From Nannocystis pusilla (GTDB lineage Bacteria; Myxococcota_A; Polyangia; Nannocystales; Nannocystaceae): a stretch of DNA of 64,000 nucleotides. The stretch spans positions 17,694 through 81,693 of the forward strand of contig NZ_JAIRAU010000002.1 of assembly GCF_020073745.1 (NCBI RefSeq). The letters are read 5' to 3'. The notes under the pieces were generated by a model. The model ran no database searches. It worked only from the letters and a program-made list of their open reading frames with translations, and was not told the origin of the DNA. Below, one piece after another: positions 42,709 through 61,633 of this stretch (within the stretch, counting starts at the first letter, position 1; every line of letters begins with the position of its first letter). The position numbers were made by a program, and so were the translations under genes.

Positions 42709-42950
42709 GCGAAGTCCTGATCGATTCCCCGGGCATCCATCCGCGCGCAGGCCATACCGAGCGTCGTGCCGAGCATGGGATGCACCATGCTGTGTCGCCC
42801 TCGCTGACGCCCTGCAACGGTCCGGAGCTTGCCGTCATCGAGGAAGGCCGTGTTCACATTCGGCTCGTCTCCGAAGAGAGAAAAGACATCATCAGAAATG
42901 GCGGATTGATCGGGGAAATCGAACGAGCCGTGGAGCTCGCGTCATCGAGC

Positions 42951-45571: not shown

Positions 45572-46408
45572 ATGTCGCGCCGCCGGAGCTCGCCATGGAC
45601 CTTCGCCCGGAGCGCCCTCGTGCTCGTCACCGCCTGTCGCCCCGCGCCCGCGACCGTCGTGGCGGCTCCGAGCCCCCCAGAGCGCGCGTCGCCGCGGCCC
45701 GGCACCGCGATCGACCTGTGCGCCGATCCGCCGGCCGCCTTCGCCAGCTACCGCTGGCTCCCCAACGAGGTCTTCACCCTCGTCACGGTGCGCCCCGACG
45801 AGCCCGCGCTCGCGACCTCGCTGCGGGCGCTCGAAGCGCGGGCCACCAACGCCTTCGGCGACGCGACACTCGCGTTCCCGGACCACTTCGCCCGCGAGCT
45901 CCCGCAGGTCCGCGCCCTGCTCGCGCGGGCAGGGCTGCGCCCCGCGGAGCTGGTGTTCCTCGGGGCCGGCGACACCGAGGCGTGGGCCGCCCCGCGGCTG
46001 TGCGGAGCCGACGCCCTGCGCCGCGCCAGCGCAGCCATGGGCCTGCGCGTGCGCGAGGTCCAGGCCCCGCTCGCGGCCGTGATCGCCGAACCAAGCGCGT
46101 CGGGGTACGCCCTCCTGCAGCTCGCGTCCGGCGGACCGCTGTGGATCGCCCAGGCGGACCGGCTCGAGAGGCTGCAGTCGTGGCTGGCCGTCCTGTCCGG
46201 CGACGTCGGCGAGTACTACGCCGAGTGGCTGCGCGACCCGGAGCGGCGAGGCACCCTGCGCGTCCTCGACACCGACCCCTTCCCCCCGGGCGCGGTGGAC
46301 GTGCTGGTCTGCGTGACCACGCGGAAGACCGCCGTGACGGGCGCCGAGGTCGACCACGGCGCGGACATCACCGAGGTCTTCATCACCGCGCGCAAGCCCG
46401 GGACGTGA
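45572..46408 (+). CDS. Lipoprotein, unknown function
   Basis: Signal peptide with lipobox LVTAC. 278 aa, high GC3. Confidence 0.5.
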   Translation: MSRRRSSPWTFARSALVLVTACRPAPATVVAAPSPPERASPRPGTAIDLCADPPAAFASYRWLPNEVFTLVTVRPDEPALATSLRALEARATNAFGDATLAFPDHFARELPQVRALLARAGLRPAELVFLGAGDTEAWAAPRLCGADALRRASAAMGLRVREVQAPLAAVIAEPSASGYALLQLASGGPLWIAQADRLERLQSWLAVLSGDVGEYYAEWLRDPERRGTLRVLDTDPFPPGAVDVLVCVTTRKTAVTGAEVDHGADITEVFITARKPGT

Positions 46409-46601
46409 GGCCCGATGCCAGTCCCCGAGCGGGCTCGGGAGGGGTCAGGAGGGGTCGCTGCTCCTCTCGCAGAACGCCGATGATAGGGGCGTTCGGCCAG
46501 CGGTCGTGCGGATCTCGGGCCACGATGGGACCGACGCGCAGCGCGGCCGGCGTGGCGGAGCACAGGCGAGGGCTGCTCGGAATGGTGCGGCGTCGCGGCG
46601 A

Positions 46602-48398
46602 CTACGGGGCGACGACCGGTTCGGCGCCGAGATCGCGGGCGAGGTCGGCGAGCTCGCCGATCGGGACCTGCAGCGCGGGCAGGCGGGTGATGTCGGCCCG
46701 CGCGGCCTGGGCGATCGACTCGCTGGCGCGCATGATGAGGCCGCCGTGGCCGTCGGCGACGACGGTGTAGCCGGCCCGGCGCAGGCGCGTGAGGCGGGCC
46801 TGGGCCTCCGGCGAGAGGTCGGTGGCGGACGGGCGCAGGGTGGGCACGCGGCCGGGCCAGACGGCAGCCAGGTAGGCGGTGATCCGCGGCGGGTAGAGGA
46901 CGCCGCCGGCTGTCTTTTCGTTCAGGTGGACGTCGACCAGGGCGGCGTAGCCGTGGACGTGGCAGCGGACGGCTCCGTGCAGGTGGCTGGTCCACATCGC
47001 CTCGGGGCTGACGGGGGCGGGCCACAGGCCGTCGAACCACGCGACGATGGCGTCGTAGCTGGGCAGGCGCTGGCCGCCGAGGGCCTCGCCGAGGCGCTGG
47101 ACCTCGGCGCCGAACCGCTCGCCGCGCTCCTCCCGGCGCAGGCGGAGGAGGACGGCGAGCAAGGCGATCGGGGCGGCGACGTACCACAGGCCGAACACGA
47201 CGAGGACGACGCAGACGACGGCGGTGAGCAGGAGGCCGGAGCCGCCGTCGCGGACCTGCTGCTGGCGCCGCTCGTCGGCGTGGCGGGCCAGGAGGGCCCG
47301 GCGGGCCACGGCGAGGGCGGTGGCGGGGATCCGGCCCTCGGGCTCGGGCCCGGCGGCGTCGGGCCGATCGGGGAGGAAGGAGCGGACGGCGGCGACGAGC
47401 TCGCTGGTCGTTCGGACAGGTGGACCGTCGGCCGGCTCGCGCACGGCGGCGACCAGCAGCGGCGCCTCGGCCAGCCCGCCGGGCGGGGCGGCCAGGCCTG
47501 CCGCCGACGAGGGGGTGCTCTGGCTGGCGCCGGCGCGGTTGTAGAGGATCGCCAGCAGCGAGGAGTTCGAGGGGCCGGCGCCGGGGATGGTGTCGCCGGC
47601 GCCGACGGGGCTGGTCGAAAGGACAGGTGAGTGCGGGGCCGGCAGCGGGCCGGACAGGGCCGCCGGGTCGAAGGCCGGCGCGAGGGGGACGTCGGAGAGC
47701 CTGTCTGCAGGGACATGTGGGATGTCCGCACGGACAGGTCGATCGAGGCTGGCCGCGGGGACAGGCGATGAGGGGCTGTCTGCAAGGACAGGTGAGCCGT
47801 CGGGCGGCGAGAGGTGGGCGAACACGCCGGCCGGGGCCGGCTCGGCGGCGAGGCCCTCGGCGACGAGGCCGGCAGCCAGCTCGGCCGCGAGCGAGCCGGG
47901 CTTGTGCCCGGGGACCGGCGGCCGGGCGGCGAGCTGGCCCGACAGGGTGGCGGGGCCGGGCCTGGCGGGCAGCGGGGCGCGCATGGTCTCGCCCGGCATC
48001 GGCTCGTAGCTGTCCTTGGGGGCAGGTCCCGCGGGGCCGGGGACGGGCGGCGCGGGGGCGGGGCCGATCGCCAGCAGGGTGGTGGGATGGACCGGCGCGC
48101 CGAGCAGTCTGGCCGAGGGCCCGGGCTGGCTGGGCGCGTAGGCGCGGGGCTGAGGCGGCGCGAGGTCGGCGGGCTCGGGGTCCGGCTCCGGGCTGACTGT
48201 TGGGACAGGTGCGCTGCGGACCAGATCGCTGACGGCCTGCTGGATGGCCCGCTCGTACAGGGCGAGCGCGTCGGCGACGGCCGCCGGCAGACCGTGATCC
48301 TGACCGCAGGCCGGGCAGGTGGCGGCACCGCGGATGTCGGCGAGCCCGAGCGCGTGCTGGCAATGCGGGCAGCGCAACGCGAGAGTCGGGGAGAGCAC
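46602..48398 (-). CDS. Hypothetical protein: N-terminal zinc ribbon, long Pro-rich linker, TM helix, C-terminal ~200-aa domain
   Basis: CPHCQ...CPACGQ zinc ribbon. Pro/Ala-rich low-complexity middle that carries several copies of the GGACAKGTG motif family at nucleotide level. TM LLLTAVVCVVLVVFGLWYVAAPIALLAVLL. Confidence 0.55.
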   Translation of the reverse strand: MLSPTLALRCPHCQHALGLADIRGAATCPACGQDHGLPAAVADALALYERAIQQAVSDLVRSAPVPTVSPEPDPEPADLAPPQPRAYAPSQPGPSARLLGAPVHPTTLLAIGPAPAPPVPGPAGPAPKDSYEPMPGETMRAPLPARPGPATLSGQLAARPPVPGHKPGSLAAELAAGLVAEGLAAEPAPAGVFAHLSPPDGSPVLADSPSSPVPAASLDRPVRADIPHVPADRLSDVPLAPAFDPAALSGPLPAPHSPVLSTSPVGAGDTIPGAGPSNSSLLAILYNRAGASQSTPSSAAGLAAPPGGLAEAPLLVAAVREPADGPPVRTTSELVAAVRSFLPDRPDAAGPEPEGRIPATALAVARRALLARHADERRQQQVRDGGSGLLLTAVVCVVLVVFGLWYVAAPIALLAVLLRLRREERGERFGAEVQRLGEALGGQRLPSYDAIVAWFDGLWPAPVSPEAMWTSHLHGAVRCHVHGYAALVDVHLNEKTAGGVLYPPRITAYLAAVWPGRVPTLRPSATDLSPEAQARLTRLRRAGYTVVADGHGGLIMRASESIAQAARADITRLPALQVPIGELADLARDLGAEPVVAP

Positions 48399-48539
48399 GT
48401 CGGGACGATACCTCAGAAAATCGGCCCCGGGCCGGACGTGGCGCGGGCGCGGGCGCGCAGGCCGGCGAGGCCCGCGATGGCGGGCGCGCGAGGTGAGGCG
48501 AGCGACCGCCGGCGCGGTCGCGAGTCGCAGCGGCGCAGA

Positions 48540-48900
48540 AGGTGACGCGAGTGACAGGTCGCGGCCGCAACATGGGGCCGAGGCGAGCGCGTGGCGGGGA
48601 GACCCGGGACGCGGAGGTGACGCGTGCGGGTGGCGGGCGCGAGGAGCCGAGACGAGCGCGTGGCGGGGAGACCGGGGCGCGGAGGTGACGCGTGCGGGTG
48701 GCGGGCGCGAGGGGCCGAGGCGAGCGCGTTCGCGGAGGTGACGCGTGCGGGTGGCGGGCGCGAGGGGCCGAGGCGAGCGCGTTCGCGGAGGTGACGCGTG
48801 CGGGTGGCGGGCGCGAGGGGCCGAGGCGAGCGCGTCACGGTGAGTCGGGAGGTCGGCCGTGCCGGCCGAGGCGAGCGCGTCGCGGTGAGACCGGGCGCTG
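48540..48900. repeat. Tandem direct repeat array: 53-68 bp unit GGAGGTGACGCGTGCGGGTGGCGGGCGCGAGGGGCCGAGGCGAGCGCGTTCGC, 4 full plus 2-3 partial copies
   Basis: Unit starts at ~48613, 48681, 48734 and 48787, with partial copies at ~48540-48611 and 48840-48900. It lies in the divergent intergenic region between 46602..48398 (-) and 49151..51859 (+). Confidence 0.85.
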
Positions 48901-49150
48901 GCAGGTCGTGCGGAGCCGTGCCGCGCGGACGCGGCGCGGGCTGGCCGGCGGAGGCGCGGAAGGGCCTGGAGGACGCGGGAGACGGCGGTCCGCGGCCCCG
49001 GCGAGGCCGGTCCCGGGTCGACGAGCCGCGGACGGCGGGCGATCGCCCGGACCTCGGCGGGGCGGCGCGGGTCGCGGGCGAGGATGCGCGCGGCGGCGAC
49101 TCGGGGTATGAGGGGGCGCCGCGCGCGACAGGCGGGCGGCGAGCAACACC

Positions 49151-51859
49151 GTGCCCGATCTGCCCGTCTCGCCTCCCTCGCCCCGCGGCCTCGACCTTCC
49201 GGGCGCCGCCTCCGAATTCGCGTCGCTCGTCGACGAGCGGCTGGCCAACGGCGCCCGCCTGCTGATCTTGCCGGCCCGCCCGGTCGGCGCCGGACCGGCG
49301 GCGATCCAGCTATGGGTGGGCTCGGGGACCGCGGCCGAGCGCCCGGACGAGCACGGGTGCGCCCACCTGCTCGAGCACATGCTCTTCAAGCCATGTGCTC
49401 TGGGACATGGCCCGAAGAGCATCCGCGCGCGCCTGGCGAAGGCCGGGGTGCGGCGGACCGAGCCGGCGCTCGACCTCGCGGGGGCGATCGAGGCGCTCGG
49501 CGGCGACATCAACGCGTTCACCAGCCACGACGAGACGGTGGTGCACGTGACGGCCCCGGCGGCGCGGGCGGCCGAGGCGGCGGCGCTGATCGCCGCGGCG
49601 ACGCTGCACCCGACGCTCGACCCGACCACGCTGGCGCAGGAGCGCGAGGTGGTGATCGAGGAGATCAAGCAGTACGACGACGACCCGGGCCAGCGGGTGA
49701 CGCAGGCGGCGCTCGGGCGGGTGTACGGGGGGCACGCGTACGCGCGGCCGGTGCTCGGGCTCGAGGCCGAGGTCGCCGGCCACACGGCGGCGCGGCTGCG
49801 GGCGTATCACCGCCGGGCCTACGCGGGCGAGCGGCTGACGCTGGTGGCCGTCGGCGCGGTCGACGTGGCGGCGCTGCGCAAGGTGGCGCGGGCGACCGTC
49901 GGGGCGCTGCCGGCCGCGCCGGCCCGGCGGCCGACGGGCGAGCCGGCGCCGCGGCCCGGGGTGACGGTGAAGCGCGCCGAGGTCCAGGAGGCCTATGTGC
50001 TGCTGGCCTGGCCGGCGCCCGCGGCCGGGGCGGCCGACGCGGCGGCGATCGACGCGGCGGCGGTGGTGCTCGGCAACGGCGAGTCGTCGCGCCTGGTCGC
50101 CGAGACACGGCGCAAAGAACAGGTCGTTTCGGACATCCAGGCCCACTGCGACACGCTGCGGCTCGGCGGGTCGGTGCTGGTGTCGGCGCGCACGACCGCG
50201 GCCCAGGCGGCCGCGGCGGTGACGGCGGTGCTGGCCCAGGTGCGGCGGCTGGCGGCGGCGCCGGTGTCGCCCGAGGAGCTGGCGCGGGCCAAGGCGATCC
50301 TCGAGAGCGACCTGGTGTACCGGCGCGAGACGGTGCAGGGGCAGGCGCACGCGCTCGGGGCGTGCGCGACGATCTTCGGCGACCTGGCGCGCGAGCGCGA
50401 GTACTACGCGGCCCTGGCCGCGCTGACGCCGGAGGCGGTCCGCTCGGCCTGCGCCCGCTGGCTCGACCCGGCGCGCGCGTGCGTCAGCCTCGAGCTGCCG
50501 CGCGCCGAGGTGGATGTCGCCAAGGCCAGGTCGGTCAAGTCCGCGGTCGACGCGGCGCTGAAGCCGGCGGAGGGGCCGCGGCGCGACGGTCCGGCGCCGA
50601 AGCGCGCGCCCGACGGGATCGACACGCTGACGCTGCCGAACGGGCTGCGGCTGCTGGCGCGGGTCGAGCGGGCGGTGCCGGTGGCGGCGGGCTGGCTGAT
50701 CTGGCCCGGGGGACAGCGGCGCGAGCCGGCGGCGCTGGCCGGCTCGAACTCGGTGGCCGCGGCCCTGCTCACCCGCGGCAACGCGCGCATGGACGGCGAG
50801 GCGCTGAGCCGGGCGATCGACGGCATGGCGGCGGGGCTCGACGGGTTCGCCGGCCGCAACAGCCTCGGGCTGCACTTCGAGTGCCTGGCGCGCCACTTCC
50901 CGGCGGTGCTCGGGCACGCGCTCGACTGCACGATCACGCCGACGTTCGCGGCCGACGAGCTCGAGGAGGAGCGGCGCGTGGCCCTGCAGGATCTGGCGGC
51001 GGAGGTCGACGACCCGGGCCAGGTGGCGTCCCGCGGGCTGCACAAGCTCCTGTACGGCGAGCACCCGTTCAGCCGCCCGGTCCGCGGCACTCCCGAGGGG
51101 CTGCGCGCGCTGACGCCGGCCAAGTTGAAGGCGCTGTGGCGGCGCGACTACCCGATCGGCCAGGCGGTGCTGGCGCTGGCCGGCGACGTCGACGTCGCGG
51201 CGGCGGCGGCCCAGGTCGAGGCGGCGCTGCGCGAGGCTGGCCTCTGGGACAGGATGTCCGAAAGGCCAGGCAAGGCGAAGCCGGTGCAGGCGCCGCGAGG
51301 GCCGCGCGAGCGCGAGATCTTCCAGGACCGCGAGCAGGCCCACATCGCCCTCGGCTGGCCGGGGATCGCCGTCGGCGACGAGCGCGAGCCGACGCTCGAC
51401 GTGCTCAGCGCGGTGCTCGGCGGCCAGACGGGGCGGCTGTTCACGGCGCTGCGCGAGGTCCAGGGGCTGGTGTACGAGGTGTCGATGTCGAGCGTCGAGG
51501 GCGTCGACGCCGGTCACGTGGCGATCCACGCGTCGACCAGCCAGGACAAGCTGCCGAAGGCGCTGGCCGCGATCGCGGCGGAGGTCGAGCGCGCGGTGCG
51601 AGAGCCGCCGTCGCCGGCCGAGGTGGCGCGCGCGCAGGCGTGGCTGGTCGGCCAGTTCGAGCTCGGGCAGCAGCGCCGCAGCCGGATGGCGTCGCTGCTG
51701 GCGCTGTCGGAGGTGTACGGGCTGCCGCGGGCGCGCGCGTTCGCCTACCCGCAGCGGGTCCGGGCGGTCACGCCGGAGGGGGTGTGGGCGCTGGCCCGCA
51801 CGCTGTTCCGCCCGCAGGTCGCGGCGCGCTGCGTGGTGCGGGCGAAGCGGCGCAAGTGA
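49151..51859 (+). CDS. M16 family zinc peptidase (pitrilysin/insulinase-like), two tandem M16 units
   Basis: Inverted zinc motif HLLEHM (HxxEH). Downstream GGDINAFTS...ETV. 902 aa is consistent with two M16 halves. An ~18-aa insertion (PCALGHGPKSIRARLAKA) sits right after HMLFK relative to the usual HFLEHMxFKGT...NAFTS spacing. Confidence 0.8.
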   Translation: MPDLPVSPPSPRGLDLPGAASEFASLVDERLANGARLLILPARPVGAGPAAIQLWVGSGTAAERPDEHGCAHLLEHMLFKPCALGHGPKSIRARLAKAGVRRTEPALDLAGAIEALGGDINAFTSHDETVVHVTAPAARAAEAAALIAAATLHPTLDPTTLAQEREVVIEEIKQYDDDPGQRVTQAALGRVYGGHAYARPVLGLEAEVAGHTAARLRAYHRRAYAGERLTLVAVGAVDVAALRKVARATVGALPAAPARRPTGEPAPRPGVTVKRAEVQEAYVLLAWPAPAAGAADAAAIDAAAVVLGNGESSRLVAETRRKEQVVSDIQAHCDTLRLGGSVLVSARTTAAQAAAAVTAVLAQVRRLAAAPVSPEELARAKAILESDLVYRRETVQGQAHALGACATIFGDLAREREYYAALAALTPEAVRSACARWLDPARACVSLELPRAEVDVAKARSVKSAVDAALKPAEGPRRDGPAPKRAPDGIDTLTLPNGLRLLARVERAVPVAAGWLIWPGGQRREPAALAGSNSVAAALLTRGNARMDGEALSRAIDGMAAGLDGFAGRNSLGLHFECLARHFPAVLGHALDCTITPTFAADELEEERRVALQDLAAEVDDPGQVASRGLHKLLYGEHPFSRPVRGTPEGLRALTPAKLKALWRRDYPIGQAVLALAGDVDVAAAAAQVEAALREAGLWDRMSERPGKAKPVQAPRGPREREIFQDREQAHIALGWPGIAVGDEREPTLDVLSAVLGGQTGRLFTALREVQGLVYEVSMSSVEGVDAGHVAIHASTSQDKLPKALAAIAAEVERAVREPPSPAEVARAQAWLVGQFELGQQRRSRMASLLALSEVYGLPRARAFAYPQRVRAVTPEGVWALARTLFRPQVAARCVVRAKRRK

Positions 51860-51904
51860 GCGCGGGCGCCGGCGCGCGGCGCTTCGCGTGGGCGAGAGTG
51901 CGTG

Positions 51905-52072
51905 TGTCCGAAAGGATATGCTCTTTCGGGCATGTGCTCTTCTATGTGTACAGGAAGACATGTCTGCGGAGACATGTCTTGTTCACCTCGCGCGCTCGGA
52001 GGCGCGGCCCCACGGTCGCCATCGCAGGGGACGTGATGAAAAGGACATGTTTTAAGAGGCATGTCTTCGGGG
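51905..52072. repeat. Intergenic cluster of 14-nt-periodic CATG-core decamer repeats (lower-GC island)
   Basis: ccgaaaggATATGCTCTttcgGGCATGTGCtctt...AGACATGTCTgcggAGACATGTCT...GGACATGTTTtaagAGGCATGTCT. Each decamer pair is separated by 4 nt. Confidence 0.8.
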
Positions 52073-52999
52073 CTAGCTGCGAGCGCGCCGCGCGGTGGCC
52101 CGGGCGGAGCCGCGCCCGACGTGCGCGCCGAGGCCGGCCCACAGCGCGTCGAAGACGGTCCGGCAGCGCCGTGAGGCCTTGAGATCTTCGTGCATGGCGA
52201 GCCACATCTCGACCTTCGGCGCGAACTCGCCGGCGAGCACGCGCACAAGCCCGGCGCGGCGGGCCAGCGAGACGTGGCAGGCACCGATCCCGCACCCGGC
52301 CCGGATCGCCGCGAACTGGGCGACGTCGTCGTCGGTGCGGAAGCTGAAGGCGTCGCGCGTGAGCGGCCGGCCGCCGAGGCGCAGGGTGCCGGTGTACGGG
52401 GCGGGCACGTCGAAGCCGACCAGGGCGTGCCGGGCCAGGGCCGCGGGAGTGGTCGGGGCCGGCCGGCGCGCGAGGTAGCCGGGCGCGGCGAACAGGCCGA
52501 GCTCGAAGGCGCCGACGCGTTTGGCCAGCAGCGCGCCCTGGCTCGGGCGAACCGTCCGCACGGCGATGTCGGCGTCGCGCCGCACGAGGTCGGCGATCCG
52601 GTTCGACACCACCAGCTCGACGACGATGCCGGGGTGCTCGGCCTGGAGGGCGGCGAGGACCGGCGGTAAGACCTCGGCGGCGACGATCTCGCTGGCGGTG
52701 ATCCGCACGGCGCCGACGTTCTCGGCCAGCGGGCCCGAGGCCTTGCGCAGCAGCGAGTCGGTGGCGGCGACCAGGGCCTCGACCTCGGGGCGCAGCGCCT
52801 CGGCGGCGGGCGTGGGCGCGAGCCCGCCGCGCGAGCGGGTGAACAGGGGCAGCCCGAGCGCCGCCTCGAGCGCGGCGACGTGACGGCCGAGCGTGGGCTG
52901 GCTGAGTCCGAGCCGACGCGCGGCCGCCGACAGCGAACCCTCGCGCAGGACCGCGGCGAACGCCCGGTACAGCGACCAGTCCGGCGGAGCGAGAGACAT
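52073..52999 (-). CDS. LysR family transcriptional regulator
   Basis: N-terminal wHTH (LYRAFAAVLREGSLSAAARRLGLSQPTLGRHVAALE) and a LysR substrate-binding domain. Divergent from the epoxide hydrolase gene. Confidence 0.85.
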   Translation of the reverse strand: MSLAPPDWSLYRAFAAVLREGSLSAAARRLGLSQPTLGRHVAALEAALGLPLFTRSRGGLAPTPAAEALRPEVEALVAATDSLLRKASGPLAENVGAVRITASEIVAAEVLPPVLAALQAEHPGIVVELVVSNRIADLVRRDADIAVRTVRPSQGALLAKRVGAFELGLFAAPGYLARRPAPTTPAALARHALVGFDVPAPYTGTLRLGGRPLTRDAFSFRTDDDVAQFAAIRAGCGIGACHVSLARRAGLVRVLAGEFAPKVEMWLAMHEDLKASRRCRTVFDALWAGLGAHVGRGSARATARRARS

Positions 53000-53081
53000 T
53001 CAAGGATGAATAGACGTTCCCCACTTTTATGCAATTCCAAACGGATGGCCGGACCGGCAGGTTCGCGGGCGGAGACCGAAC

Positions 53082-54194
53082 ATGCAGACCATCGACGTCC
53101 AGCCCTTCACCGTCGCGGTGCCCGAGGCCGCGCTCACCGACCTGCGGCGCCGCCTGGCCCAGACCCGCTTCACCGACGCGCTCGCCGACGCCGGGCCCGA
53201 CTGGGGCGTCGAGCCGGCGGCGCTGCGGGCCCTGGTGGCCCACTGGCAGCGCTTCGACTGGCGCGCCGCCGAGGCGGCGATCAACGCGTTCCCGGCGTTC
53301 CGCGCGCAGATCGGCGGGATCGGGCTGCACTTCGTGCACGCGCGCGGACGGGCGCCTCGGCGGCTGCCGCTCGTGCTCACCAACGGCTGGCCGAGCTGCT
53401 TCACCGAGCTGCTGCCGCTGGTGCCGCTGCTGACCGAGCCGGTCGACGGGGTCGGGTTCGACGTGGTGATCCCGTCGCTGCCCGGATACGGCTTTTCGGA
53501 CAGGCCGAGCCGGAGCGGCATGAACATCACCCGGATCGCGGCGCTGTGGGCCGAGCTGATGGCCGAGCTCGGCTACCCGCGGTTCTTCGCCCACGGCAGC
53601 GACATGGGCGCGGGCGTGGTCGAGCGACTGCGGGCCGACCACCCCGAGCGCGTGCTCGGCATCCACATGGTCAACGTGTTCTGGGGCTATCCGCGGCCGC
53701 CGGCGCCGACGCCCGCGGAGGCGGCGTACCTCGAGCGCGGGCCGCAGTGGCAGCAGCGCGAGGGCGCCTACGCGGCGCTCCACGCGACCCGGCCGCACAC
53801 GATCGCGGCCGGCCTCAACGACTCGCCGGCCGGCCTGGCGGCGTGGATCGGCGAGAAATTCGCGGCGTGGAGCGAGCGGCCGCCGTCGCTCGACGCGCTG
53901 TGCACGATCTTGACGATCTACTGGGTGACCGAGACGATCGCGTCGTCGCAGCGGCTGTACCGCGAGACATTCGCCGACGCGGGCGCGATGGCCCCGCCGC
54001 CCCGGCGCGGGCCGCCCGTGGCGGTGGCGATCTTCCCCGGCGACATCCTGCCGGCCCCGCGCGCGTGGGGCGAGCGGTGGTTCGAGCTCGCGCGTTGGAC
54101 GGAGATGCCGCGCGGCGGCCACTTCCCCGGCCTGGAGGCGCCCGAGCTGCTGGCGGCGGACATCCGCGCGTTCGCGGCGGGGCTCGTGGCGTGA
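53082..54194 (+). CDS. Epoxide hydrolase (alpha/beta-hydrolase with N-terminal EHN domain)
   Basis: Epoxide-hydrolase N-terminal-domain-like start (FTVAVPEAALTDLRRRLAQTRF), GIGLHFVHARG and alpha/beta-hydrolase features. Confidence 0.7.
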   Translation: MQTIDVQPFTVAVPEAALTDLRRRLAQTRFTDALADAGPDWGVEPAALRALVAHWQRFDWRAAEAAINAFPAFRAQIGGIGLHFVHARGRAPRRLPLVLTNGWPSCFTELLPLVPLLTEPVDGVGFDVVIPSLPGYGFSDRPSRSGMNITRIAALWAELMAELGYPRFFAHGSDMGAGVVERLRADHPERVLGIHMVNVFWGYPRPPAPTPAEAAYLERGPQWQQREGAYAALHATRPHTIAAGLNDSPAGLAAWIGEKFAAWSERPPSLDALCTILTIYWVTETIASSQRLYRETFADAGAMAPPPRRGPPVAVAIFPGDILPAPRAWGERWFELARWTEMPRGGHFPGLEAPELLAADIRAFAAGLVA

Positions 54195-54200
54195 CGGGCG

Positions 54201-54520
54201 ATGGCTGGACTTGAGGGCATGTTCGTGAGGGCATGTCCTCCCGGCCATGAGCGCGCGGCGACGGGCGCGCGGCCGCGGAGACATGTCCATGAGCGTATGT
54301 CCTCGGGTTCACGCGCGTGCGAACCGGCGCTCCTCGCCGACCGGCGGCGATTCGCTCGTCGGGGCAGCAGGAACGACGCGGCGGCGCGAGCGAGGCGGCC
54401 CTCGCTCGGGCGCTTCATGGCAGTCTCGTCGGAATAGCGACAGCTACCGGAGCCGCTCGAGTGGAGCGGTCCAGTCATGCCCCGGCGCGCGAGGCGGGTT
54501 GTCCTTGAGGGCATGTCCTC
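54201..54520. repeat. Intergenic cluster of 14-nt-periodic CATG-core decamer repeats
   Basis: GGGCATGTTCgtgaGGGCATGTCC (54218-54241), AGACATGTCCatgaGCGTATGTCC (54279-54302), GTTGTCCTTGAGGGCATGTCC (54495-54515). Confidence 0.75.
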
Positions 54521-54734
54521 AGGGCCAGTCGTCGAGATCGAGGCCGCGGCCGAGCTCCGGGTCGGCCGCGAGCAGGTCCCGCAGGGTGGCCTCGCGCAGG
54601 CCGAGGGCGCGCGCGCCGGCGCTCACGCTGGCCTGGGCCGTCAGGACGGCCCGGACCTCGCGGCGGAAGGCGGCGGGATCCGTGCGGCGCAGGGCCAGCA
54701 GCAGCGGCTCGCGGGGCTCGGCGGGGAGGGTCAC
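54519..54734 (-). CDS. Small Fis-type HTH protein (71 aa)
   Basis: SVSAGARALGLREATLRDLL resembles the Fis/NtrC C-terminal HTH. GTG start, no clear RBS. Confidence 0.35.
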   Translation of the reverse strand: MTLPAEPREPLLLALRRTDPAAFRREVRAVLTAQASVSAGARALGLREATLRDLLAADPELGRGLDLDDWP

Positions 54735-54772
54735 GCGCGGACTGTAGCGCGCTTGTCGCCGGCGGGGCGGTC

Positions 54773-55381
54773 GTGCTTCAGTCGCCCGGGATGACGAGGC
54801 GACGGACAGGCGCGTGGTCGTTCGTGGGGCTGATGTTGCTGGGGTGCGACCCGGCCGGGCGCGAGCGGGCGGCGCTGCAGGCCGAGCTGGAGGCGATGTC
54901 GGCGCTGCTCGCGGAGCACCGGGCGCAGATCGAGGCGCTGCAGGCCGATCTGGTGCAGCAGCAGCTCGCGCTGCAGGAGTGCCGACGGCCGAGCGCGCCG
55001 AATTTGCCGGCGCTGCCGGCGAGCGGGCCGGACGCGCCGGCGCTGACGCCGACGTGCGACGCCGGGGTTTGCGTGGTGAAGCGCGCCGAGTTCGAGGCGC
55101 TGATGGAGGCGCCGGCGGTGCTGGCCCGGCTCGCTCGCGTGATCCCGTCGACGCGAGAGGGGAAGGTCGTGGGGTACAAGCTGTACTCCGTCCGGCCGGG
55201 CACGCCGCTGGAGCTCGCCGGCTTCAAGAACGGCGATCTGATCCAGACCATCGACGGTGAGGCGCTCGGCGGCGCCGACGAGGTGTTGGGGCTGTTCGTC
55301 AAGCTGCGCCGGCTCGACCGCTGGACGATCGCGGGGCTGCGCAAGGACGCGCCGTTCGAGCTGACGATCGCGGTCGAGTGA
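54773..55381 (+). CDS. Lipoprotein with coiled-coil and a C-terminal PDZ-like domain
   Basis: Lipobox LLGC. EALQADLVQQQLALQ coiled-coil. C-terminal GYKLYSVRPGTPLELAGFKNGDLIQTIDGEAL is PDZ-like. Confidence 0.55.
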   Translation: MLQSPGMTRRRTGAWSFVGLMLLGCDPAGRERAALQAELEAMSALLAEHRAQIEALQADLVQQQLALQECRRPSAPNLPALPASGPDAPALTPTCDAGVCVVKRAEFEALMEAPAVLARLARVIPSTREGKVVGYKLYSVRPGTPLELAGFKNGDLIQTIDGEALGGADEVLGLFVKLRRLDRWTIAGLRKDAPFELTIAVE

Positions 55382-55420
55382 GCGCGAACGGGGGCCTGCC
55401 CGGCCCGGATTCGGATGGCT

Positions 55421-55800
55421 GAAAGGACATGTCGTCGGCGCCAGCCGCGAGCGACGACATGCCCGAAAGGACACGTTCGCTCCGCGGCTCGCCGAGCGCG
55501 CCGTCGCCCTGAGCGACAGCGACCCGATGGGAAGCGCGCTCTCGGTGCTCGACGCCGACTCGCCGGCGTCGACGCGGGTCGGTCGGGGCGGGGCCGTGAG
55601 GTCGCGGCCTGCGGGGGGCCGGGGGCGACGCTCGTAGGACACGGCCCCCCGCAGGGCGGGTCCGTGGAGGCGTTTGTGCATGTTCGAGTGGACATGTCTC
55701 AAGGGACATTTGCGAACGACGGACCCGAGGGGGCGGAGCTGCCCGTGGACATGTGTCCGCATGGACATGTCGTTCGCGCCAGCTCCGGTCGAGTGTCCGC
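55421..55800. repeat. Intergenic cluster of the same repeat family in a convergent region
   Basis: tgaaaGGACATGTCG...CGACATGCCCgaaaGGACACGTTC (55421-55475). TGGACATGTCtcaaGGGACATTTG and GTGGACATGTGTCCGCATGGACATGTCG (55690-55790). Confidence 0.75.
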
Positions 55801-55950
55801 GGGCGCGGGATCTCGCGTCGATCGCCGTCGCGGTCTCGAACGACATTCAGTAACTGGGCGGAGCGCGGAGCGGGTCCGCGCTGTTGACCGGGGTTCAAGC
55901 GCGGCGCGTCGCGGTGTGGCGCGGGCCACACGGATCTGCACCGTGTCGGA

Positions 55951-57720
55951 TCAGGCGGCCGAGGCGACGCCGAGGCTGCGCGCGAGGGCGCGGGCGACGG
56001 CGAGCGGGCGGCCCTTGAACACGCGGACGTAAGGAATGGCGCTGGCCCGGGCGGCGCGGGCCAGGATCCCGTCGATGTTGTGGGCCTGGAAGCCGGTGGC
56101 GATGAGCACGTAGTCGTAGCTGTGGCGCGAGATGCTCTCGCACTGGGCCTGGACCTTGCGGGCGTTGCCGTCGCACCAGGTGATGTCGAGGCCGAGCGAC
56201 TCCTCGAGCTTGGACTTGAGATCGGGGTCCTCGCGGTTGCTGACGAACAGGACCCGCTTGCCCTCGACCTTGGGCCGGACCTGGGCGACGAGGTGCGCGC
56301 CCGGATCGTCGACGTCGTCGGTCTCCTCCTCGAGGTCGCCGTCGCCTTCGGACGGCAGCACGCCGAGCTCGCCGCGCTTGAGCACGTCGTGCAGGCCGGT
56401 GAGGCGGCGACGCAGGCGGCGATCCTCGAACAGGTCGGGCCGCAGGGCGTCGATGCGCGGCCGGATCGGCTGGACCAGCGAGGCGACCTCGGGCGTGTTG
56501 TGGGCGTCGAAGGCCCGCTGCAAGAAGGCGAGCAGGGCCTCGTCGTCGAAGCTGTCGGCGGCCGCCAGCGCGTCGCGTTCGGCCCGCACGGCCGCCTGTT
56601 GCTGGCGCACCTGATCGGCGGAGGGACCGGTGCGGGCCCGCTCCGGCGGGGGGATGAACTCGGGGTCGAGCCAGCGGCGGAGCAGCGGCAGACGCTCGCC
56701 GAGGCGCCCCGCGAGCCAGCGCAGGCGACCCATGACGGCGCCCCAGGTCTCGGGGTCCTCGGCGGCGATGAAGCGACGGATCTCGCGCAGCGCCTGGGCG
56801 TGCTTGAGCAGCGCGTCGAGCTGCTCGTTGGGCAGCTCCTCGGGCGGCGTGGTGAGGTGGCGCGGCGGCGGGTCGGTGACGTTGCCGGCGATGGCCTCGA
56901 TGGCCCGCTGGGCCTCACGCAAGAGCGTGCGCGGCGGGCCCGGCGGGGTCTTGCGCGCGCGATCGGCCCAGCCGTAATCGTCGACCGGGACCTCGCTGGT
57001 CAGCGCCCGATCCTTGTGGTTCTGCACGAACTCGTGGGCCTCGGCCCAGGTCTTCGGCGCGTGCAGGGTCTTGAGCCCGAGCTCGGTGACCACGCACGCG
57101 GGCACGGCGTTCATCTGCAGCGCCTGCACCGAACCCGGCCACAAGGTCTTGCTCAGGTTGGTCAGCTCGTGGGCGATGCGCCGCACCAGCACGGTGATCT
57201 TGTGCTCGCCCTGGAACTGCTCGTCGAAGCTGCGCGCGCGCGAGATCCAGGCCAGCATGTAGACCTTTTGGTAGCGCGGGGACATGAGCGCGAAGTCGGG
57301 GCGCATGTCCTGGATGTCCTTGAGGATCTCTTCCAGCGTCTCGCGCGCCTCGGCGACCGCCGCCGCAGGATAGGTGGGCAGCTGAATTCGGCCGACGATC
57401 GGGCTGCGCGGCTGCTCGGGCTCGGGCGAGGCGGCAGCAGGCGGGGCGGAGATAGGTTCGGTGGATACGGAGGGCGGGACCGGCGCCGCGGGCGGGCGCG
57501 CTGGCTCCTGGAGGCCGTCGCGGAAGCGATCGAAGAGCTGACGCGCCGCCGCCGAGGGGAACATCTGCGTCAGCGCGTCTTCGAGGGCGCTGTCGCGGTC
57601 GGGTCCGCGGCCGAGCCAGCGCTCCGCGTCGCGCCAGATCAGCACCTCGGTCCACTGATGGGTATACATCGCGTGGCGATAGCCGCTGTCCGCGAGAAAC
57701 TTGGGTAGCCCGTCGTGCAT
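55951..57720 (-). CDS. Hypothetical protein (589 aa)
   Basis: Long ORF with high GC3. The C-terminal KRVLFVSNR...YDYVLIATGF...IPYVRV region is reminiscent of DUF2325-like domains. Function unknown. Confidence 0.5.
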   Translation of the reverse strand: MHDGLPKFLADSGYRHAMYTHQWTEVLIWRDAERWLGRGPDRDSALEDALTQMFPSAAARQLFDRFRDGLQEPARPPAAPVPPSVSTEPISAPPAAASPEPEQPRSPIVGRIQLPTYPAAAVAEARETLEEILKDIQDMRPDFALMSPRYQKVYMLAWISRARSFDEQFQGEHKITVLVRRIAHELTNLSKTLWPGSVQALQMNAVPACVVTELGLKTLHAPKTWAEAHEFVQNHKDRALTSEVPVDDYGWADRARKTPPGPPRTLLREAQRAIEAIAGNVTDPPPRHLTTPPEELPNEQLDALLKHAQALREIRRFIAAEDPETWGAVMGRLRWLAGRLGERLPLLRRWLDPEFIPPPERARTGPSADQVRQQQAAVRAERDALAAADSFDDEALLAFLQRAFDAHNTPEVASLVQPIRPRIDALRPDLFEDRRLRRRLTGLHDVLKRGELGVLPSEGDGDLEEETDDVDDPGAHLVAQVRPKVEGKRVLFVSNREDPDLKSKLEESLGLDITWCDGNARKVQAQCESISRHSYDYVLIATGFQAHNIDGILARAARASAIPYVRVFKGRPLAVARALARSLGVASAA

Positions 57721-57900
57721 CGCCCGTTACGCTAGTCTTTTCGCGCTGCTGCTGCAACGAAGGGGCAAAATGCCGCGCGCGGCCCGAGGTCCGCGCGGGC
57801 AGGGTGAGGGCCTGCCCCGGCGGAGGCTGTTCAGCGCCGCGCGCGCCGCGAGGACGCCGTTCGCCGCCCTCGCAATCGGACCTGAACCGCGTGCCGCGGC

Positions 57901-58680
57901 TCAGGTGCCGAGGACCGAGCCGCCGTCGACGCTCAAAGTGGCGCCGGTGATGAAGCTCGACTTCTCGTCGGCGAGGAAGAGGTAGGCGCGAGCGATGTCG
58001 TCGGGCTGACCCGCGCGGCCGACCGGGGTGTGCTCGATCATCGACTTCAGGACCTTCTCCGGGATGCTCTCCACCATCGACGTGGCGACGAAACCCGGGG
58101 CGACGACGTTGGCGGTGATGCCGTAGCGGCCGAGCTCGCGCGCCCATACGCGCGTCATGCCGATCACGCCGGCCTTGGCGGCGACGTAGTTGGTCTGGCC
58201 GAAGTTGCCGTAGAGGGCGACGACCGAGCTGGTGCTGACGATGCGGCCGTACTTCTGGGCGATCATGGTCGGGACGACCGCCTGGGTGCAGTTGAACACG
58301 CCCTTGAGGCAGACATCGAGGACGAACTGGAACTGCTCGGCGCTCATCTGGCCGACCACCTGTCCGTCCTTGACCTTGACCAGCTGGCCGTCGCGGACGA
58401 CCCCGGCGTTGTTGATGAGGACGTCGATGCGGCCGAACCGCTCGACCACGGCGGCGGCCGCGGCGGCGCAGTCCTCGGGCTTGCTGACGTCGACCTTGCG
58501 GGCGATGGCGACGCCGCCGGCGGCGGTGATCGCGGACACGACCTCCTCGGCTGCCTGTTCGGCCAGGTCCCACACGGCGACGGCGTAGCCGGCGTCGGCG
58601 AGCATGCGAGCGGTGGCGCGGCCGATGCCGTTGCCGCCGCCGGTGACGATGGCGATCCGCGGTGAATTGGTGCTTGTCAT
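57901..58680 (-). CDS. fabG: SDR family 3-oxoacyl-ACP reductase (FabG-like)
   Basis: IAIVTGGGNGIGRA (TGxxxGxG), NNAG, YVAAKAGV (YxxxK). Divergent from the ACP-led lipid cluster. Confidence 0.85.
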   Translation of the reverse strand: MTSTNSPRIAIVTGGGNGIGRATARMLADAGYAVAVWDLAEQAAEEVVSAITAAGGVAIARKVDVSKPEDCAAAAAAVVERFGRIDVLINNAGVVRDGQLVKVKDGQVVGQMSAEQFQFVLDVCLKGVFNCTQAVVPTMIAQKYGRIVSTSSVVALYGNFGQTNYVAAKAGVIGMTRVWARELGRYGITANVVAPGFVATSMVESIPEKVLKSMIEHTPVGRAGQPDDIARAYLFLADEKSSFITGATLSVDGGSVLGT

Positions 58681-58853
58681 GGGGCGGCGAGGGTACCGAG
58701 AGGCGCTCGGAGCCGCCTGCACCAAGAGCCAGCCCGAAGATGTGAGCTTGCGCCGTGTCGGTGGGGCAAAGCACGCTCCGCTCGGGTGTCCACGGAGGGG
58801 GAAGGGCGAGGCTTGTCGGCTCCCGGGCGATCCCCGTAGGATGCGCCGACCCC

Positions 58854-59144
58854 ATGACAGATGCCGCCCCGCCCGACGCGCTGGTCCGCGAGATCAAGGA
58901 GCTCATCATCGAGGCCCTGATGCTGCAGGACATGACCCCCGAGGACATCGACCCCGAGGCGCCGCTGCTGGTCGAGGGGCTGGGCCTCGACTCGATCGAC
59001 GTGCTCGAGCTGGCGATGGCGATCGGCAAGAAGTACGGGGTCAAGACCAAGGCCGACGACGCGCAGAACCGGCACATCTTCGCCAGCGTGACCAACCTGG
59101 CCCGCTTCGTCGCCGAGCAGCGGGCGGCCGCGGCGGCGAGCTGA
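58854..59144 (+). CDS. Acyl carrier protein
   Basis: LGLDSIDVLELAMAIGKKYG, with the DSI/DSL phosphopantetheine-attachment serine. ~96 aa. Confidence 0.75.
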   Translation: MTDAAPPDALVREIKELIIEALMLQDMTPEDIDPEAPLLVEGLGLDSIDVLELAMAIGKKYGVKTKADDAQNRHIFASVTNLARFVAEQRAAAAAS

Positions 59145-59156
59145 GAACCGGCGGCC

Positions 59157-59810
59157 GTGATGGCGGACCCTGACGGCAAGCCGCAGCGGGCCGCGGGGGT
59201 CCCGAGGTGGCTCCCGGCGGTGCTGCGTTCGCTGCTGGTCGGCGGCTACCCGCTGGTGGTGTACCTCGGCATGACGCGCTGGAGCCCGCGCACGCTGGCG
59301 CTGGTGCTCGCCTGCGCGCTGCTGCCGGGGCTCGTGCTGCGCCTGCGCGAGGCCCGGCGCGAGGACCTGTGGCCGGTGCTGCGGGTGCCGCTGTCGCTCC
59401 TCGGGCTGTTCGCGGCGGCGGCGCTGTCGGGCGAGCAGCGGCTGTTCATGGCCCTGCCGGTGCTGGTCAACCTGGGGCTTTTGGCCAACTTCGCGGCGAG
59501 CCTGCGCGGGCCGGCGTCGCTGGTCGAGCGGTTCGCGCGGCTGCAGGAGCCCGAGCTGCCGCCCGGCGGGCCGGCGTACTGTCGCAAGGTCACGGTGGTC
59601 TGGTGCGGGTTCTTCGTCGCCAACGCGGCCGCCAGCGCCGCGCTCGCGCTGTGGGCCCCGGTGTCCTGGTGGACGCTGTACACCGGACTTTTGGCGTACC
59701 TGCTGATCGGGGTAATGTTCACCGTCGAGTACGTCGTCCGCAAGGCGACCTTCCGCCGGTTCGGCGACGCGTTGCCCGACCGCCTGCTCCGCCGTCTGCT
59801 CCGCGCATGA
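59157..59810 (+). CDS. Integral membrane protein (possibly COG4648-like, as found in aryl-polyene clusters)
   Basis: Five or six TM helices. Sits between the ACP and AMP-ligase genes. Its stop overlaps the next gene's start (ATGA). Confidence 0.45.
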   Translation: MMADPDGKPQRAAGVPRWLPAVLRSLLVGGYPLVVYLGMTRWSPRTLALVLACALLPGLVLRLREARREDLWPVLRVPLSLLGLFAAAALSGEQRLFMALPVLVNLGLLANFAASLRGPASLVERFARLQEPELPPGGPAYCRKVTVVWCGFFVANAAASAALALWAPVSWWTLYTGLLAYLLIGVMFTVEYVVRKATFRRFGDALPDRLLRRLLRA

Positions 59811-61633
59811 GGTCCTTCGTCCCGCTCGTCTACACCGATCCCGCGGCGCGCGTCGCCGTCGGCGAGGCCGGCCCGCGCAGCGCGGGCGAGCTGATGCGCG
59901 ACGCGAGCCTCGTCGCCGAGCGCCTGCCGCCGGCGCGGCCCGGCAGCGAGGTGCTGGTGGTCTGCGGCGACCGCTATCACCTGGCGGTCACGGCCCTGGG
60001 CGCGTGGCTGCGCGGCCACGCGGTCGCGCTGCCGCCGAACGCCCAGCCGGCGGCGGTGCGCGAGCTGGCGGGGCGGCCCGACGTGGTGGCGCTGATCCAC
60101 GACTCCGACCTGGCCGACGCCCAGGACGTCCGCGAGTGGCTCTCGGGACATGCTCTCGGGGTCATGGCCGATCCGACATGGCCCGAAGCGCTACCGGCGG
60201 ACCGGCGGCTGGCGGTCGTGTACACCTCGGGCAGCACCGGCGACCACCAGCCGTGCGCCAAGACGGCCGGGCAATTGCTCGGCGAGGCGCAGGCGCTGGC
60301 GGCCACGTTCGCGCTGGCGGCCGGCGAGGTGGCGCTGGCGACGGTGCCGCCGTACCACCTCTACGGGCTGCTGTTCGGGGTGCTGGCGCCGCTGGCCGCG
60401 GGGGCGGCGTTCGCCCGCGAGACGCCGCTGCACGCCGAGACGGTGGCGAGGGCGGCGCGCGAGGTCGGGGCGACGGTGCTGGTCAGCACGCCGGCGCACC
60501 TGCGCGGGCTGACGGTGCTGCAGCGCGGCGACCTGCCGCCGCTGCGGCGGGTGTTCTCGTCGGGCGCGCCGCTGCCGCGGGCGACCGCGGACGAGCTGCT
60601 GGCCCAGCTCGGGCTGGCGGTGACCGAGGTGTACGGCTCGTCGGAGACCGGCGGGATCGGCTGGCGGCGGCACGAACAAGTCTTGGGGGACATGTCCCCG
60701 GAGCCAGCCTGGACGCCGCTGCCGGGGGTCGCGGTCGAGGTCGCGGCCGAGGGGCGGCTGCTGCTGCGCTCGCCGTTCCTGGCCCCCGACGCGCCGTCGC
60801 CGTACCCGTGCGAGGACCGGGCCCTGCTCGACGCGCGCGGCGGGTTTCACCTGCGCGGGCGGCTCGACGGGGTGGTGAAGGTCGCCGGCAAGCGAGTGGC
60901 CGTGGCGGAGGTCGAGCAGCGGCTGCTGGCGCTGCCGGCCGTGGCCGACGCGGCGGTGGTGGCGACCGAGACGCCGGGCGCCCGCGGGCACGAATTGATG
61001 GCCGCGGTGGTGGCCCGCGATTCGGGGCGCGACGCCGGCGAGCTGGTGGCCGAGCTGCGGCGGGGGCTGCTCCCGTGGTTCGACCCGGTGGTGGTGCCGC
61101 GGCGGATCAAGGTGGTGCCGGCGCTGCCGCGCGAGCCCAACGGCAAGCTGACGAAGCGGCGCCTGCACGCGCTGCTCGGGCTGACGGCGGAGGAGCCGGC
61201 CGAGGCGGAGCGCGGCGGATCGGTCGCGGCCGCGGACGCGAGCGGGGCTGCGGGGGACTCGGCGGGCGCGGCTGTGATCGGGTTCGAGGTCCGTGGGCAC
61301 GTGCGGCGCGAGGCGGGCGACGCGGCGGTGCACGAGGTCGAGGTCGGGGTGCCGGTCGACCTGGCGTTCTTCCGCGGGCACTTCGACGGCGCGCCGGTGC
61401 TGCCCGGCGTGGCGCAGCTGACGGCCCTGGTGGTGCCGCAGGTGGCGGCGCTGCGGCCCGAGCTGGGGCGGCTGCGGCAGGCGGCGCGGCTGAAGTTCAC
61501 CCGGCCGATCGCGCCGGGCGACGCGCTGGTGCTGCGGCTCGAGGTGCGGGGGACGAGCGTCCGCTTCTCGCTGGCCCGCGCGGGCGAGGTGGTCACCGCC
61601 GGGGCGCTCGAGTACGAGGCGCGCGGTGACTGA
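59807..61633 (+). CDS. AMP-dependent synthetase/ligase fused to a C-terminal FabZ/FabA-type hotdog dehydratase domain
   Basis: AMP-binding motifs YTSGSTGDHQP, SSGAPL, YGSSETG, GKRVAVAEVEQ, PREPNGKL. C-terminal FFRGHFDGAPVLPGVAQL is the FabZ signature. The ATG at 59807 is translationally coupled. Confidence 0.8.
   Translation: MRSFVPLVYTDPAARVAVGEAGPRSAGELMRDASLVAERLPPARPGSEVLVVCGDRYHLAVTALGAWLRGHAVALPPNAQPAAVRELAGRPDVVALIHDSDLADAQDVREWLSGHALGVMADPTWPEALPADRRLAVVYTSGSTGDHQPCAKTAGQLLGEAQALAATFALAAGEVALATVPPYHLYGLLFGVLAPLAAGAAFARETPLHAETVARAAREVGATVLVSTPAHLRGLTVLQRGDLPPLRRVFSSGAPLPRATADELLAQLGLAVTEVYGSSETGGIGWRRHEQVLGDMSPEPAWTPLPGVAVEVAAEGRLLLRSPFLAPDAPSPYPCEDRALLDARGGFHLRGRLDGVVKVAGKRVAVAEVEQRLLALPAVADAAVVATETPGARGHELMAAVVARDSGRDAGELVAELRRGLLPWFDPVVVPRRIKVVPALPREPNGKLTKRRLHALLGLTAEEPAEAERGGSVAAADASGAAGDSAGAAVIGFEVRGHVRREAGDAAVHEVEVGVPVDLAFFRGHFDGAPVLPGVAQLTALVVPQVAALRPELGRLRQAARLKFTRPIAPGDALVLRLEVRGTSVRFSLARAGEVVTAGALEYEARGD

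Follow-up and report, generated by a model that had tools for sequence, protein, structure and literature searches.

How does a conserved metallopeptidase come to carry, just past its zinc-binding motif, a segment for which its relatives of known structure have no counterpart? The question is raised by an M16 peptidase gene in the 64,000-nucleotide (nt) stretch of Nannocystis pusilla DNA analyzed here (the window; 72% GC), where an earlier note, made from the sequence alone, had read the DNA following the HLLEHMLFK codons as an in-frame copy of a short repeat element. The analysis indicates that the DNA from 49391 to about 49431 is very probably a member or a derivative of a Nannocystis-specific family of 14-nt palindromic repeats. 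The origin of the loop extension is less firmly established; with moderate confidence we favor an ancestral in-frame insertion over its rivals.

An extra loop beside the zinc-binding site

The gene (49151-51859, + strand) encodes a protein of 902 amino acids (aa), identified as a tandem M16 (pitrilysin-family) metallopeptidase by Pfam, its orthologs and AlphaFold2. Its open reading frame (ORF) matched both PF00675 (Peptidase_M16, E = 2e-30) and PF05193 (Peptidase_M16_C, E = 6.6e-56), in two stretches each, and the protein is 97% identical to an M16 peptidase of N. radixulma. The zinc-binding motif HxxEH of the M16 peptidases is present as HLLEH (residues 72-76), and candidates for the third zinc ligand, a downstream glutamate, are E164, E170 and E171 in the sequence EREVVIEEI. 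The catalytic residues are preserved: H72, E75, H76 and the three glutamates were unchanged across 32 of 32 orthologs.

Matches in the PDB included 3amj and 3hdi (HMMER). The M16B proteins of known structure (3amj, 3hdi and PqqL, 6ofs) resemble the window protein in the HxxEH motif, the downstream glutamate residues and the pairs of M16 and M16_C domains, and they differ from it in the link between FK and the next helix. In the alignments with 3amj and 3hdi a gap of 18-19 residues opened between FK and the helix before GGxxNAFT, which bears out the earlier note's estimate of about 18 aa beyond the usual M16 spacing after HLLEHMLFK. The loop from FK to GGDINAFT is 36 aa long, compared with about 17 in solved M16B structures, and it stretches the spacing between H76 and the downstream glutamates. 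In the AlphaFold2 model (32 sequences; mean predicted local distance difference test score, pLDDT, 88.7), residues 81-100 scored 90-93, so that the extra segment is predicted to be ordered; the model adds a short helix at residues 91-97.

The extra length is restricted to one clade. Among 116 proteins of the ortholog group, 75 had 15-19 aa between FK and GGxxNAxT; the next range, 22-27 aa, comprised about 20 proteins, and 32-37 aa another 14. In a neighbor-joining tree from which the loop region had been left out, nearly all loops longer than 21 aa fell in a single clade, composed of the Nannocystis lineage (56-97% identity to the window protein) and the long-branch protein P0048. Long loops outside this clade were found in three scattered outgroup proteins of unrelated loop sequence (P0036, 27 aa; P0037, 36 aa; P0055), and the outgroup locus L066 (3121-3267) has at the same position a separate 32-aa low-complexity loop, (GA)n(GE)n. 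These unrelated expansions suggest that the loop generally tolerates changes in length. The M16 loop of Nannocystis is thus an apparently ordered excursion, specific to the clade, which begins five residues past the second zinc-binding histidine.

Outgroup DNA bears on where the extra segment begins. The native HLLEHMLFK codons occupy 49364-49390 (+ strand), and the DNA of this stretch (gagcacatgct[c/g]ttcaagcc) is near-identical in outgroup orthologs that lack the repeat family. What had been counted as the first repeat unit, cacatgctcttcaa (49376-49389), is therefore native coding DNA for E-H-M-L-F-K; it is unit-like by chance, matching ACATGTCCTTCGGGAC at about 11 of 16 positions, and it fixes the phase of the 14-nt register described below. 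The native sequence at the putative target site, CACATGCTCTTCAAG, likewise resembles a repeat unit. The proline after FK is kept across the whole ortholog group, which places the left boundary of the insert at or inside codon 81. To judge from the alignment, Pro81 is ancestral, and only the third base of its rare codon (cca) looks element-derived. The DNA quoted in the earlier note was located exactly as written at 49376-49431; the extra segment that it had delimited there stands, its left edge moves to codon 81, and its claim that the frame is preserved agrees with an open ORF and a high GC content at third codon positions (GC3) on both flanks. We delimit the segment as PCALGHGPKSIRARLAKA (49391-49444, + strand), on the basis of the PDB gap, the loop lengths, the core matches and the rare codons.

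The DNA that immediately precedes the M16 start (48576-48930) contains tandem repeats, 53 and 68 nt in length (GGCCGAGGCGAGCGCGT...GGAGGTGACGCGTGCGGGTGGCGGGCG); they occur in N. radixulma too (locus L001, 2473-2774).

A 14-nt palindromic repeat in loop and intergenic DNA

The consensus of the repeat unit, derived from intergenic tandem pairs, is a 10-bp palindrome, GGACATGTCC, plus 4 variable nt. In the DNA of the native motif and the loop, CATG occurs at 49378, 49392 and 49406, in an exact 14-nt register. Over the whole window, spacings of 14 nt between one CATG and another were observed nine times (0.45 in shuffles) and spacings of 28 nt five times (0.43 in shuffles). When three successive 10-mers in 14-nt steps were compared with GGACATGTCC, at least 21 of 30 matches were reached at 18 window positions, against 0.07 in shuffled sequence; these 18 positions fall in about eight array loci, one of them the M16 loop, with the positions 49375 and 49389. 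The 14-mers into which the loop had been cut in the earlier note are GCCATGTGCTCTGG (49390-49403), GACATGGCCCGAAG (49404-49417) and the degenerate AGCATCCGCGCGCG (49418-49431), all on the + strand. The 10-nt cores begin one base before them, at 49389 (AGCCATGTGC, 7/10), 49403 (GGACATGGCC, 9/10) and 49417 (GAGCATCCGC, 5/10).

The codons of the loop are equally unusual for this gene, whose GC3 is 0.97 and in which 28 of 902 codons end in A or T. Codons 81, 82, 83, 85 and 86 (cca tgt gct gga cat) belong to this minority (cluster permutation p = 9e-5), and codons 81-86 hold the only CAT among 20 His codons, the only TGT among nine Cys codons, one of the two CCA among 62 Pro codons and one of the three GGA among 72 Gly codons. 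The three loop units are read in three frames (x-C-x, G-H-x-P and x-S/M-x): consensus units would translate as x-T-C-P-x-G-H-V-x-x-D-M-S, and the window protein has K-P-C-A-L-G-H-G-P-K-S-I-R. The 14-nt CATG register, the GGACATGGCC core and the rare A/T-ending codons thus uphold the claim that the extra DNA bears a repeat-family signature. Together with the native HMLFKPC codons, the inserted units form an imperfect palindrome (49369-49432, + strand) with 28-nt arms at 49369-49396 and 49405-49432 that are 79% complementary; the corresponding RNA hairpin folds at -36.2 kcal/mol (z = -3.3). An intergenic segment, 51917-51943, is identical to loop positions 49377-49403 at 20 of 27 positions. A specific copying event between the two is not favored; both fit CATGCTC-variant units.

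In 704 kb of Nannocystis-like DNA, the distance from core to core was 14 nt in 179 cases, 13 nt in two and 15 nt in one. The palindromic nature of the core lets neighboring units pair, two at a time, into hairpins whose stem is 10 bp and whose loop is 4 nt long. A conserved tetraloop (GAAA or TTCG) in the 4-nt linker was considered and rejected, the linkers being highly variable across 91 perfect doublets; CCCGAAAG-type linkers are common among the intergenic copies.

The family is concentrated in Nannocystis, which was sampled as loci of about 8 kb. Cores with at most one mismatch numbered 18.7 per 100 kb in the window and 45 in nine Nannocystis M16 loci, compared with 1.1 in 26 loci of other Nannocystaceae (Enhygromyxa, Plesiocystis, Paraliomyxa and metagenome-assembled genomes) and 2.0 in 45 loci of Kofleriaceae and others. 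The exact GGACATGTCC 10-mer is expected from base composition at about 7e-7 per position; exact cores were found 13 times in 142 kb of Nannocystis DNA, where composition predicts about 0.1, vs none in 531 kb of outgroup DNA. A scan of metagenomes for perfect doublets returned 91 contigs, 86 of them at 66-77% GC. If 19-45 cores per 100 kb are extrapolated, the repeat would be present in thousands of copies per genome. The extended repeat-bearing loop and the repeat family therefore co-occur in one clade.

Most of the copies sampled lie outside genes. Of 135 further cores in metagenome contigs of Nannocystis type, 32 (about 24%) looked coding and about 76% non-coding when judged crudely by GC3. 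The coding share of bacterial genomes is roughly nine-tenths, and by this estimate the cores are strongly depleted in coding DNA; even so, each genome would have many copies in coding DNA. Where intergenic arrays were inspected, in the window and in loci L001-L005, they sit just 3' of genes. Those of the window, to which no strand is assigned, include one directly 3' of the M16 stop (51900-51985; hairpins totaling -39.1 kcal/mol, z = -4.7), whose segment 51900-51937 is terminator-like, with a stem followed by a T-rich tail, and a two-unit hairpin (52040-52072) by the stop of a convergent gene (52073-52999, - strand). The reference copy of the family is a palindromic element of about 100 nt and five units at 54207-54310 (RNA fold -67.3 kcal/mol, z = -5.9), and two further arrays (55420-55480 and 55676-55780) lie within 55420-55780.

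Two other array sites are of interest in themselves. A four-unit array (aggacaggttcgat cggccatggcggaa gaggcaggttcgga gGGACATGTCCcgg) lies at 62466-62520, where the ORFs 61494-62459 and 62460-63509 meet; the true start of the downstream gene is uncertain, and if it is 62484, the N-terminus MAEEAGSEGHVPAV is repeat-encoded. At 51883-52019, downstream of the M16 gene, the window has 137 nt, largely repeat units; at the corresponding place in N. radixulma (L001, 5736-6275), two arrays are separated by about 0.5 kb, the size of a gene, which places the arrays at the edges of a gene-sized indel.

No Rfam family was matched in E-value mode over window positions 46000-64000. The searchable literature, queried with Nannocystis and repeat or palindromic terms, yielded no prior description of the family, and GGACATGTCC appeared there only as a p53 half-site among the matches listed. 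The repeat family is apparently previously undescribed.

Age and origin of the loop

The earlier note had pointed to sister genomes as possibly lacking the 54 nt; none of the six further Nannocystis species (88-97% identity) lacks them. The six share the same 36-aa loop, and its DNA reads cca tgt NNN [c/t]tg gga cat ggc cc[g/a] aag agc. Deeper Nannocystis lineages carry variant repeat-bearing loops of 22-37 aa; an extended loop with repeats is found in every ortholog of the Nannocystis clade (56-97% identity). The exact GGACATGTCC is found in the loops of L007 (31 aa, ...gagGGACATGTCCcaaaggCCATGctg) and L178 (22 aa, ccgGGACATGTCCcaaaa), and the middle core is GAACATGTCC in L064 (32 aa, ...gaaGAACATGTCCcgagGGCCATGTTG), L008 (32 aa, gagGAACATGTCCcgagGAACATGTTA) and L175 (26 aa, GAACATGTCCcgagGGGCATCCCG). 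The loop of L177 (32 aa, GGACAGGTgcgaagGGGCATGTCCcgaaGGACAGGCCC) has the core GGGCATGTCC in a shifted register. Decayed cores were observed in L172 (37 aa, GGACAGGGCA), L173 (36 aa, GGCAAGGGGC) and L176 (23 aa, GGACAGGGTC and GGCCAGGTCG), and in L174 (32 aa) the corresponding core is deleted. In the codon alignment, the histidine of the loop is encoded by CAT wherever it is kept, and its offset does not differ between loops of the PC... and PLP... types; CAT accounts for 0-22% of the His codons in M16 ortholog genes, and synonymous differences between deep lineages are 34-37%. Loops of the L064 type exceed the 18-aa basal loop by exactly 14 codons (3 x 14 nt). When two compensating indels of one 14-nt unit each are allowed, the window and L064 loops align at the nucleotide level about as well as by codons. 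Judged by these orthologs, the repeat-bearing loop is ancient, not recent.

The M16 loop is accompanied by other in-frame, unit-like segments in genes. In a gene for an AMP-ligase/dehydratase fusion (59807-61633), whose product is 100% identical to a protein recorded as N. pusilla, three units in frame at 60143-60190 (+ strand; CATG at 60149, 60163 and 60177) encode GHALGVMADPTWPE; they read as GHA-LG-VMA-DP-TWP, and the orthologs have GHVxxDMADPTWPE, that is, the GHV, DM and TW frames of one core. The same gene contains an exact GGACATGTCC core (60674-60705, + strand; core at 60686) within VLGDMSPE, whose GDMSPE forms a 6-7-aa insertion relative to outgroups. The M16 gene itself has a second unit-like segment, tGGGACAGGATGTCCGAAAGGCCAGG, at 51245-51270 (+ strand), which encodes WDRMSERPG in a variable loop (pLDDT 63-78). 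At this site L064 (about 5090-5130) and L007 (about 5026) have ...GGGACATGTCCgaaagg..., with an exact core, encoding TGRKGHVRKA. The first loop of L177, KRTGAKGHVPKD, and GTGRKGHVRKA at the second site of L064 come from the same multi-unit array in the same frame, which suggests copying of preformed arrays. A pair at 50117-50140 (+ strand; GAACAGGTCG tttc GGACATCCAG, GAACAGGTCGtttcGGACATCCAG) lies in a conserved stretch. Its A/T-ending codons aca, aaa, gaa and gtt are common to most genomes of the N. exedens group, with gac and gtc in L002, and L007, L008 and L064 use other codons (cgc/cgg/cga, gac/gat, gtg/gtc); this weak pair could reflect chance or conversion. In addition, a Pro-rich ORF (46602-48398, - strand) has in-frame CCTGTCC, GGACAGG and GGACATG units at about 47640-47800, encoding the peptides PVLAD, PVRAD and PHVPAD, an indication that coding DNA makes use of a CAGG core variant as well.

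The most economical reading of these data, and the one that we favor by a moderate degree, is that an in-frame insertion of about 42 nt made the loop extension in the ancestor of the clade. An array of about three units (3 x 14 = 42 nt = 14 codons) would have entered the loop after the HxxEH zinc-binding helix, adjoining the native codons CAC ATG CTC TTC AAG CC, which would already have been unit-like. With a 14-nt unit, three units are the smallest in-frame multiple, so that three-unit arrays would be the ones to survive inside genes. The event would date to the ancestor of the Nannocystis clade; the insert may then have been retained as protein, read in three frames, and decayed or remodeled to differing degrees by lineage, leaving in the window lineage about 18 additional residues with a predicted ordered structure. 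We infer insertion rather than overwriting, at a target site that probably mimicked a unit, and take about 42 nt as a better guess for the ancestral insert than the 54 nt proposed before.

Several observations weigh against such an insertion. A common phase of all orthologous loops with the native CATG is not general: L176 and L177 are out of phase, which would require more than one event or several indels. Comparison of the window with L001 of N. radixulma showed no target-site duplication, direct-repeat flanks or clean filled/empty site, and only complex indels and, between arrays, the replacement of a gene-sized stretch. Neither 60143-60190 of the ligase gene, relative to outgroups, nor 51245-51270 of the M16 gene shows a net gain in length, and 50117-50140 shows no length change, which points to replacement or conversion for some copies. 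The complementarity between the right-hand arm of the loop palindrome and the native HMLFKPC codons, about 80%, is what one would expect of a local inverted duplication. Finally, L180, the locus of P0048 (GCA_964563905.1; gene 2843-5470), encodes a 32-aa loop, PFAATAVPRVVLRAAGLSPSAPV, that has VPR..LRAAG in common with loops of the L064 type and RLAxAG in common with that of the window. The protein is 51-54% identical to one Nannocystis subclade and 40-45% to outgroups; its loop has no CATG register, and no cores were found in 10.5 kb of its 67%-GC contig. IRARLAKAG, which makes up the C-terminal half of the added residues, may thus be older than the repeats or have nothing to do with them. 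The earlier note had held that the same segment without repeat similarity would speak against a repeat origin, and L180 goes part of the way, being a sister lineage with a homologous loop and no signature.

The main rival is a different account, which we regard as unlikely: the extension would have arisen by ordinary means and be older than the family, and repeat nucleotides would have been written into it later, by conversion or patch replacement from copies in the genome or through selection for the palindrome as a DNA or RNA signal, and then actively maintained. A homologous loop of the same length without the signature, unit-like DNA where length did not change, and a middle-unit histidine that is always CAT in spite of the rarity of this codon and the depth of synonymous divergence are all as it would predict. 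It requires, however, a still hypothetical conversion mechanism opposing a strong GC bias, and the decay of cores in L172 and L173 and their loss in L174 argue against strict maintenance. Moreover, L180 is a long branch with a lower-GC genome, in which the signature could have eroded.

Distinctly less probable is a local inverted duplication, in which a fold-back or template switch copied the reverse complement of the HMLFKPC codons and the resemblance to the family is secondary. The complementarity of the two arms, with GGCCCGAAGAGCATC a near reverse complement of CATGCTCTTCAAGCC, and the stability of the hairpin are what it would produce, but any palindromic unit beside unit-like native sequence yields such complementarity. 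The canonical cores GGACATGTCCC and GAGGAACATGTCCCGAGGAACATGTT of other lineages are not derivable from HMLFK codons, the hairpin register of L064 differs and its fold is no better than shuffles (z = +0.17), and the CCCGAAAG-type linkers are those common in intergenic copies. Ordinary length variation in a hypervariable loop, with the resemblance to repeats due to chance, can draw on the unrelated loops of P0036, P0037 and L066, but is very improbable in view of the triple-unit scores, the exact 10-mer cores at the homologous position in several lineages, the rare-codon cluster and the co-occurrence of extended loop and family in one clade.

Beyond the single insertion preferred here, a wider possibility can be put forward tentatively, with the odds against it: that the family is an active genus-wide system that writes itself time and again into coding DNA in three frames, by insertion and by conversion that leaves length unchanged, its genic copies being maintained at the DNA level across the divergence of the genus. 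If true, a dedicated enzyme or binding protein would be expected, as would element-encoded surface loops, with the peptide signatures TCP, GHVP and DMS, in hundreds of Nannocystis proteins; the M16 loop would be one domesticated example.

Elsewhere in the window, a giant ORF of about 5,800 aa with repeats of a 3.1-kb module (25399-42834, - strand) looks like a non-ribosomal peptide synthetase, and a tandem array with a 15-nt period and at least 13 overlapping registers lies at 5742-6023.

Comparison with known repeat systems

Rickettsia palindromic elements (RPE) are found in intergenic DNA and also, in frame, within genes that are unrelated to one another, whose proteins then carry them as additional peptides compatible with the fold (PMC10969869). 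The likeness drawn to them in the earlier note was apt, in a comparison by description only, a relationship in sequence not being expected: the M16 gene has Nannocystis units in frame at two or three sites and the ligase gene at two, with translated copies in the M16 loop and in GDMSPE of the ligase. The differences concern size, peptide and host. RPE are about 100-150 bp long, and each family encodes a conserved peptide, whereas the Nannocystis unit is 14 nt long, its coding copies span about 14-54 nt, and all three frames of one core are used (GHV(P), DMS and TC(P)). The hosts of RPE are obligate intracellular alphaproteobacteria with reduced genomes; here the host is a free-living myxobacterium (related assemblies have contigs of 11-13 Mb).

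The repetitive extragenic palindromic sequences (REP) and the RAYT-mobilized REPIN are similar in that the Nannocystis repeats are clade-specific hairpin palindromes (z down to -5.9), of high copy number and mostly extragenic, that form arrays just 3' of genes and are often paired into longer hairpins. Unlike REP, the Nannocystis unit has no 5' GTAG head; its perfect 10-bp palindrome recurs in tandem at strict 14-nt intervals, and it also occurs inside genes, whereas REP are extragenic by definition. No RAYT or other mobilizing gene was identified, with no search aimed at one. HIP1 (GCGATCGC), the highly iterated palindrome of cyanobacteria, is an 8-mer without 14-nt tandem arrays or hairpins. 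Like HIP1, the Nannocystis palindrome is short and grossly over-represented in one lineage, in coding and non-coding DNA and sometimes without length change, but its motif differs from GCGATCGC, it is organized in 14-nt tandems and its cores are strongly depleted in coding DNA.

Bacterial miniature inverted-repeat transposable elements (MITE) may be co-transcribed or serve as terminators, and in-frame fusions with genes happen on occasion (PMC10969869). The small, non-autonomous inverted-repeat architecture of the Nannocystis elements recalls those of the Correia/NEMIS and ERIC types, and the copy of about 100 nt at 54207-54310 is MITE-like. On the other hand, MITE have a fixed length and the Nannocystis elements consist of a variable number of 14-nt modules, and the comparisons of the window with L001 revealed neither a parent insertion sequence nor a target-site duplication.

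Altogether, the M16 insert is functionally RPE-like, yet the repeat departs from RPE (size, peptide), from REP (GTAG) and from HIP1 (motif) in their defining features. The colonization of genes in frame by palindromic repeats is best known from Rickettsia and is usually framed in terms of reduced intracellular genomes; in Nannocystis, a free-living myxobacterium has arrived at the same outcome with a modular unit of far smaller size. The family offers a tractable system for the spread of short repeats, the termination or stabilization of transcripts and the seeding of new protein loops.

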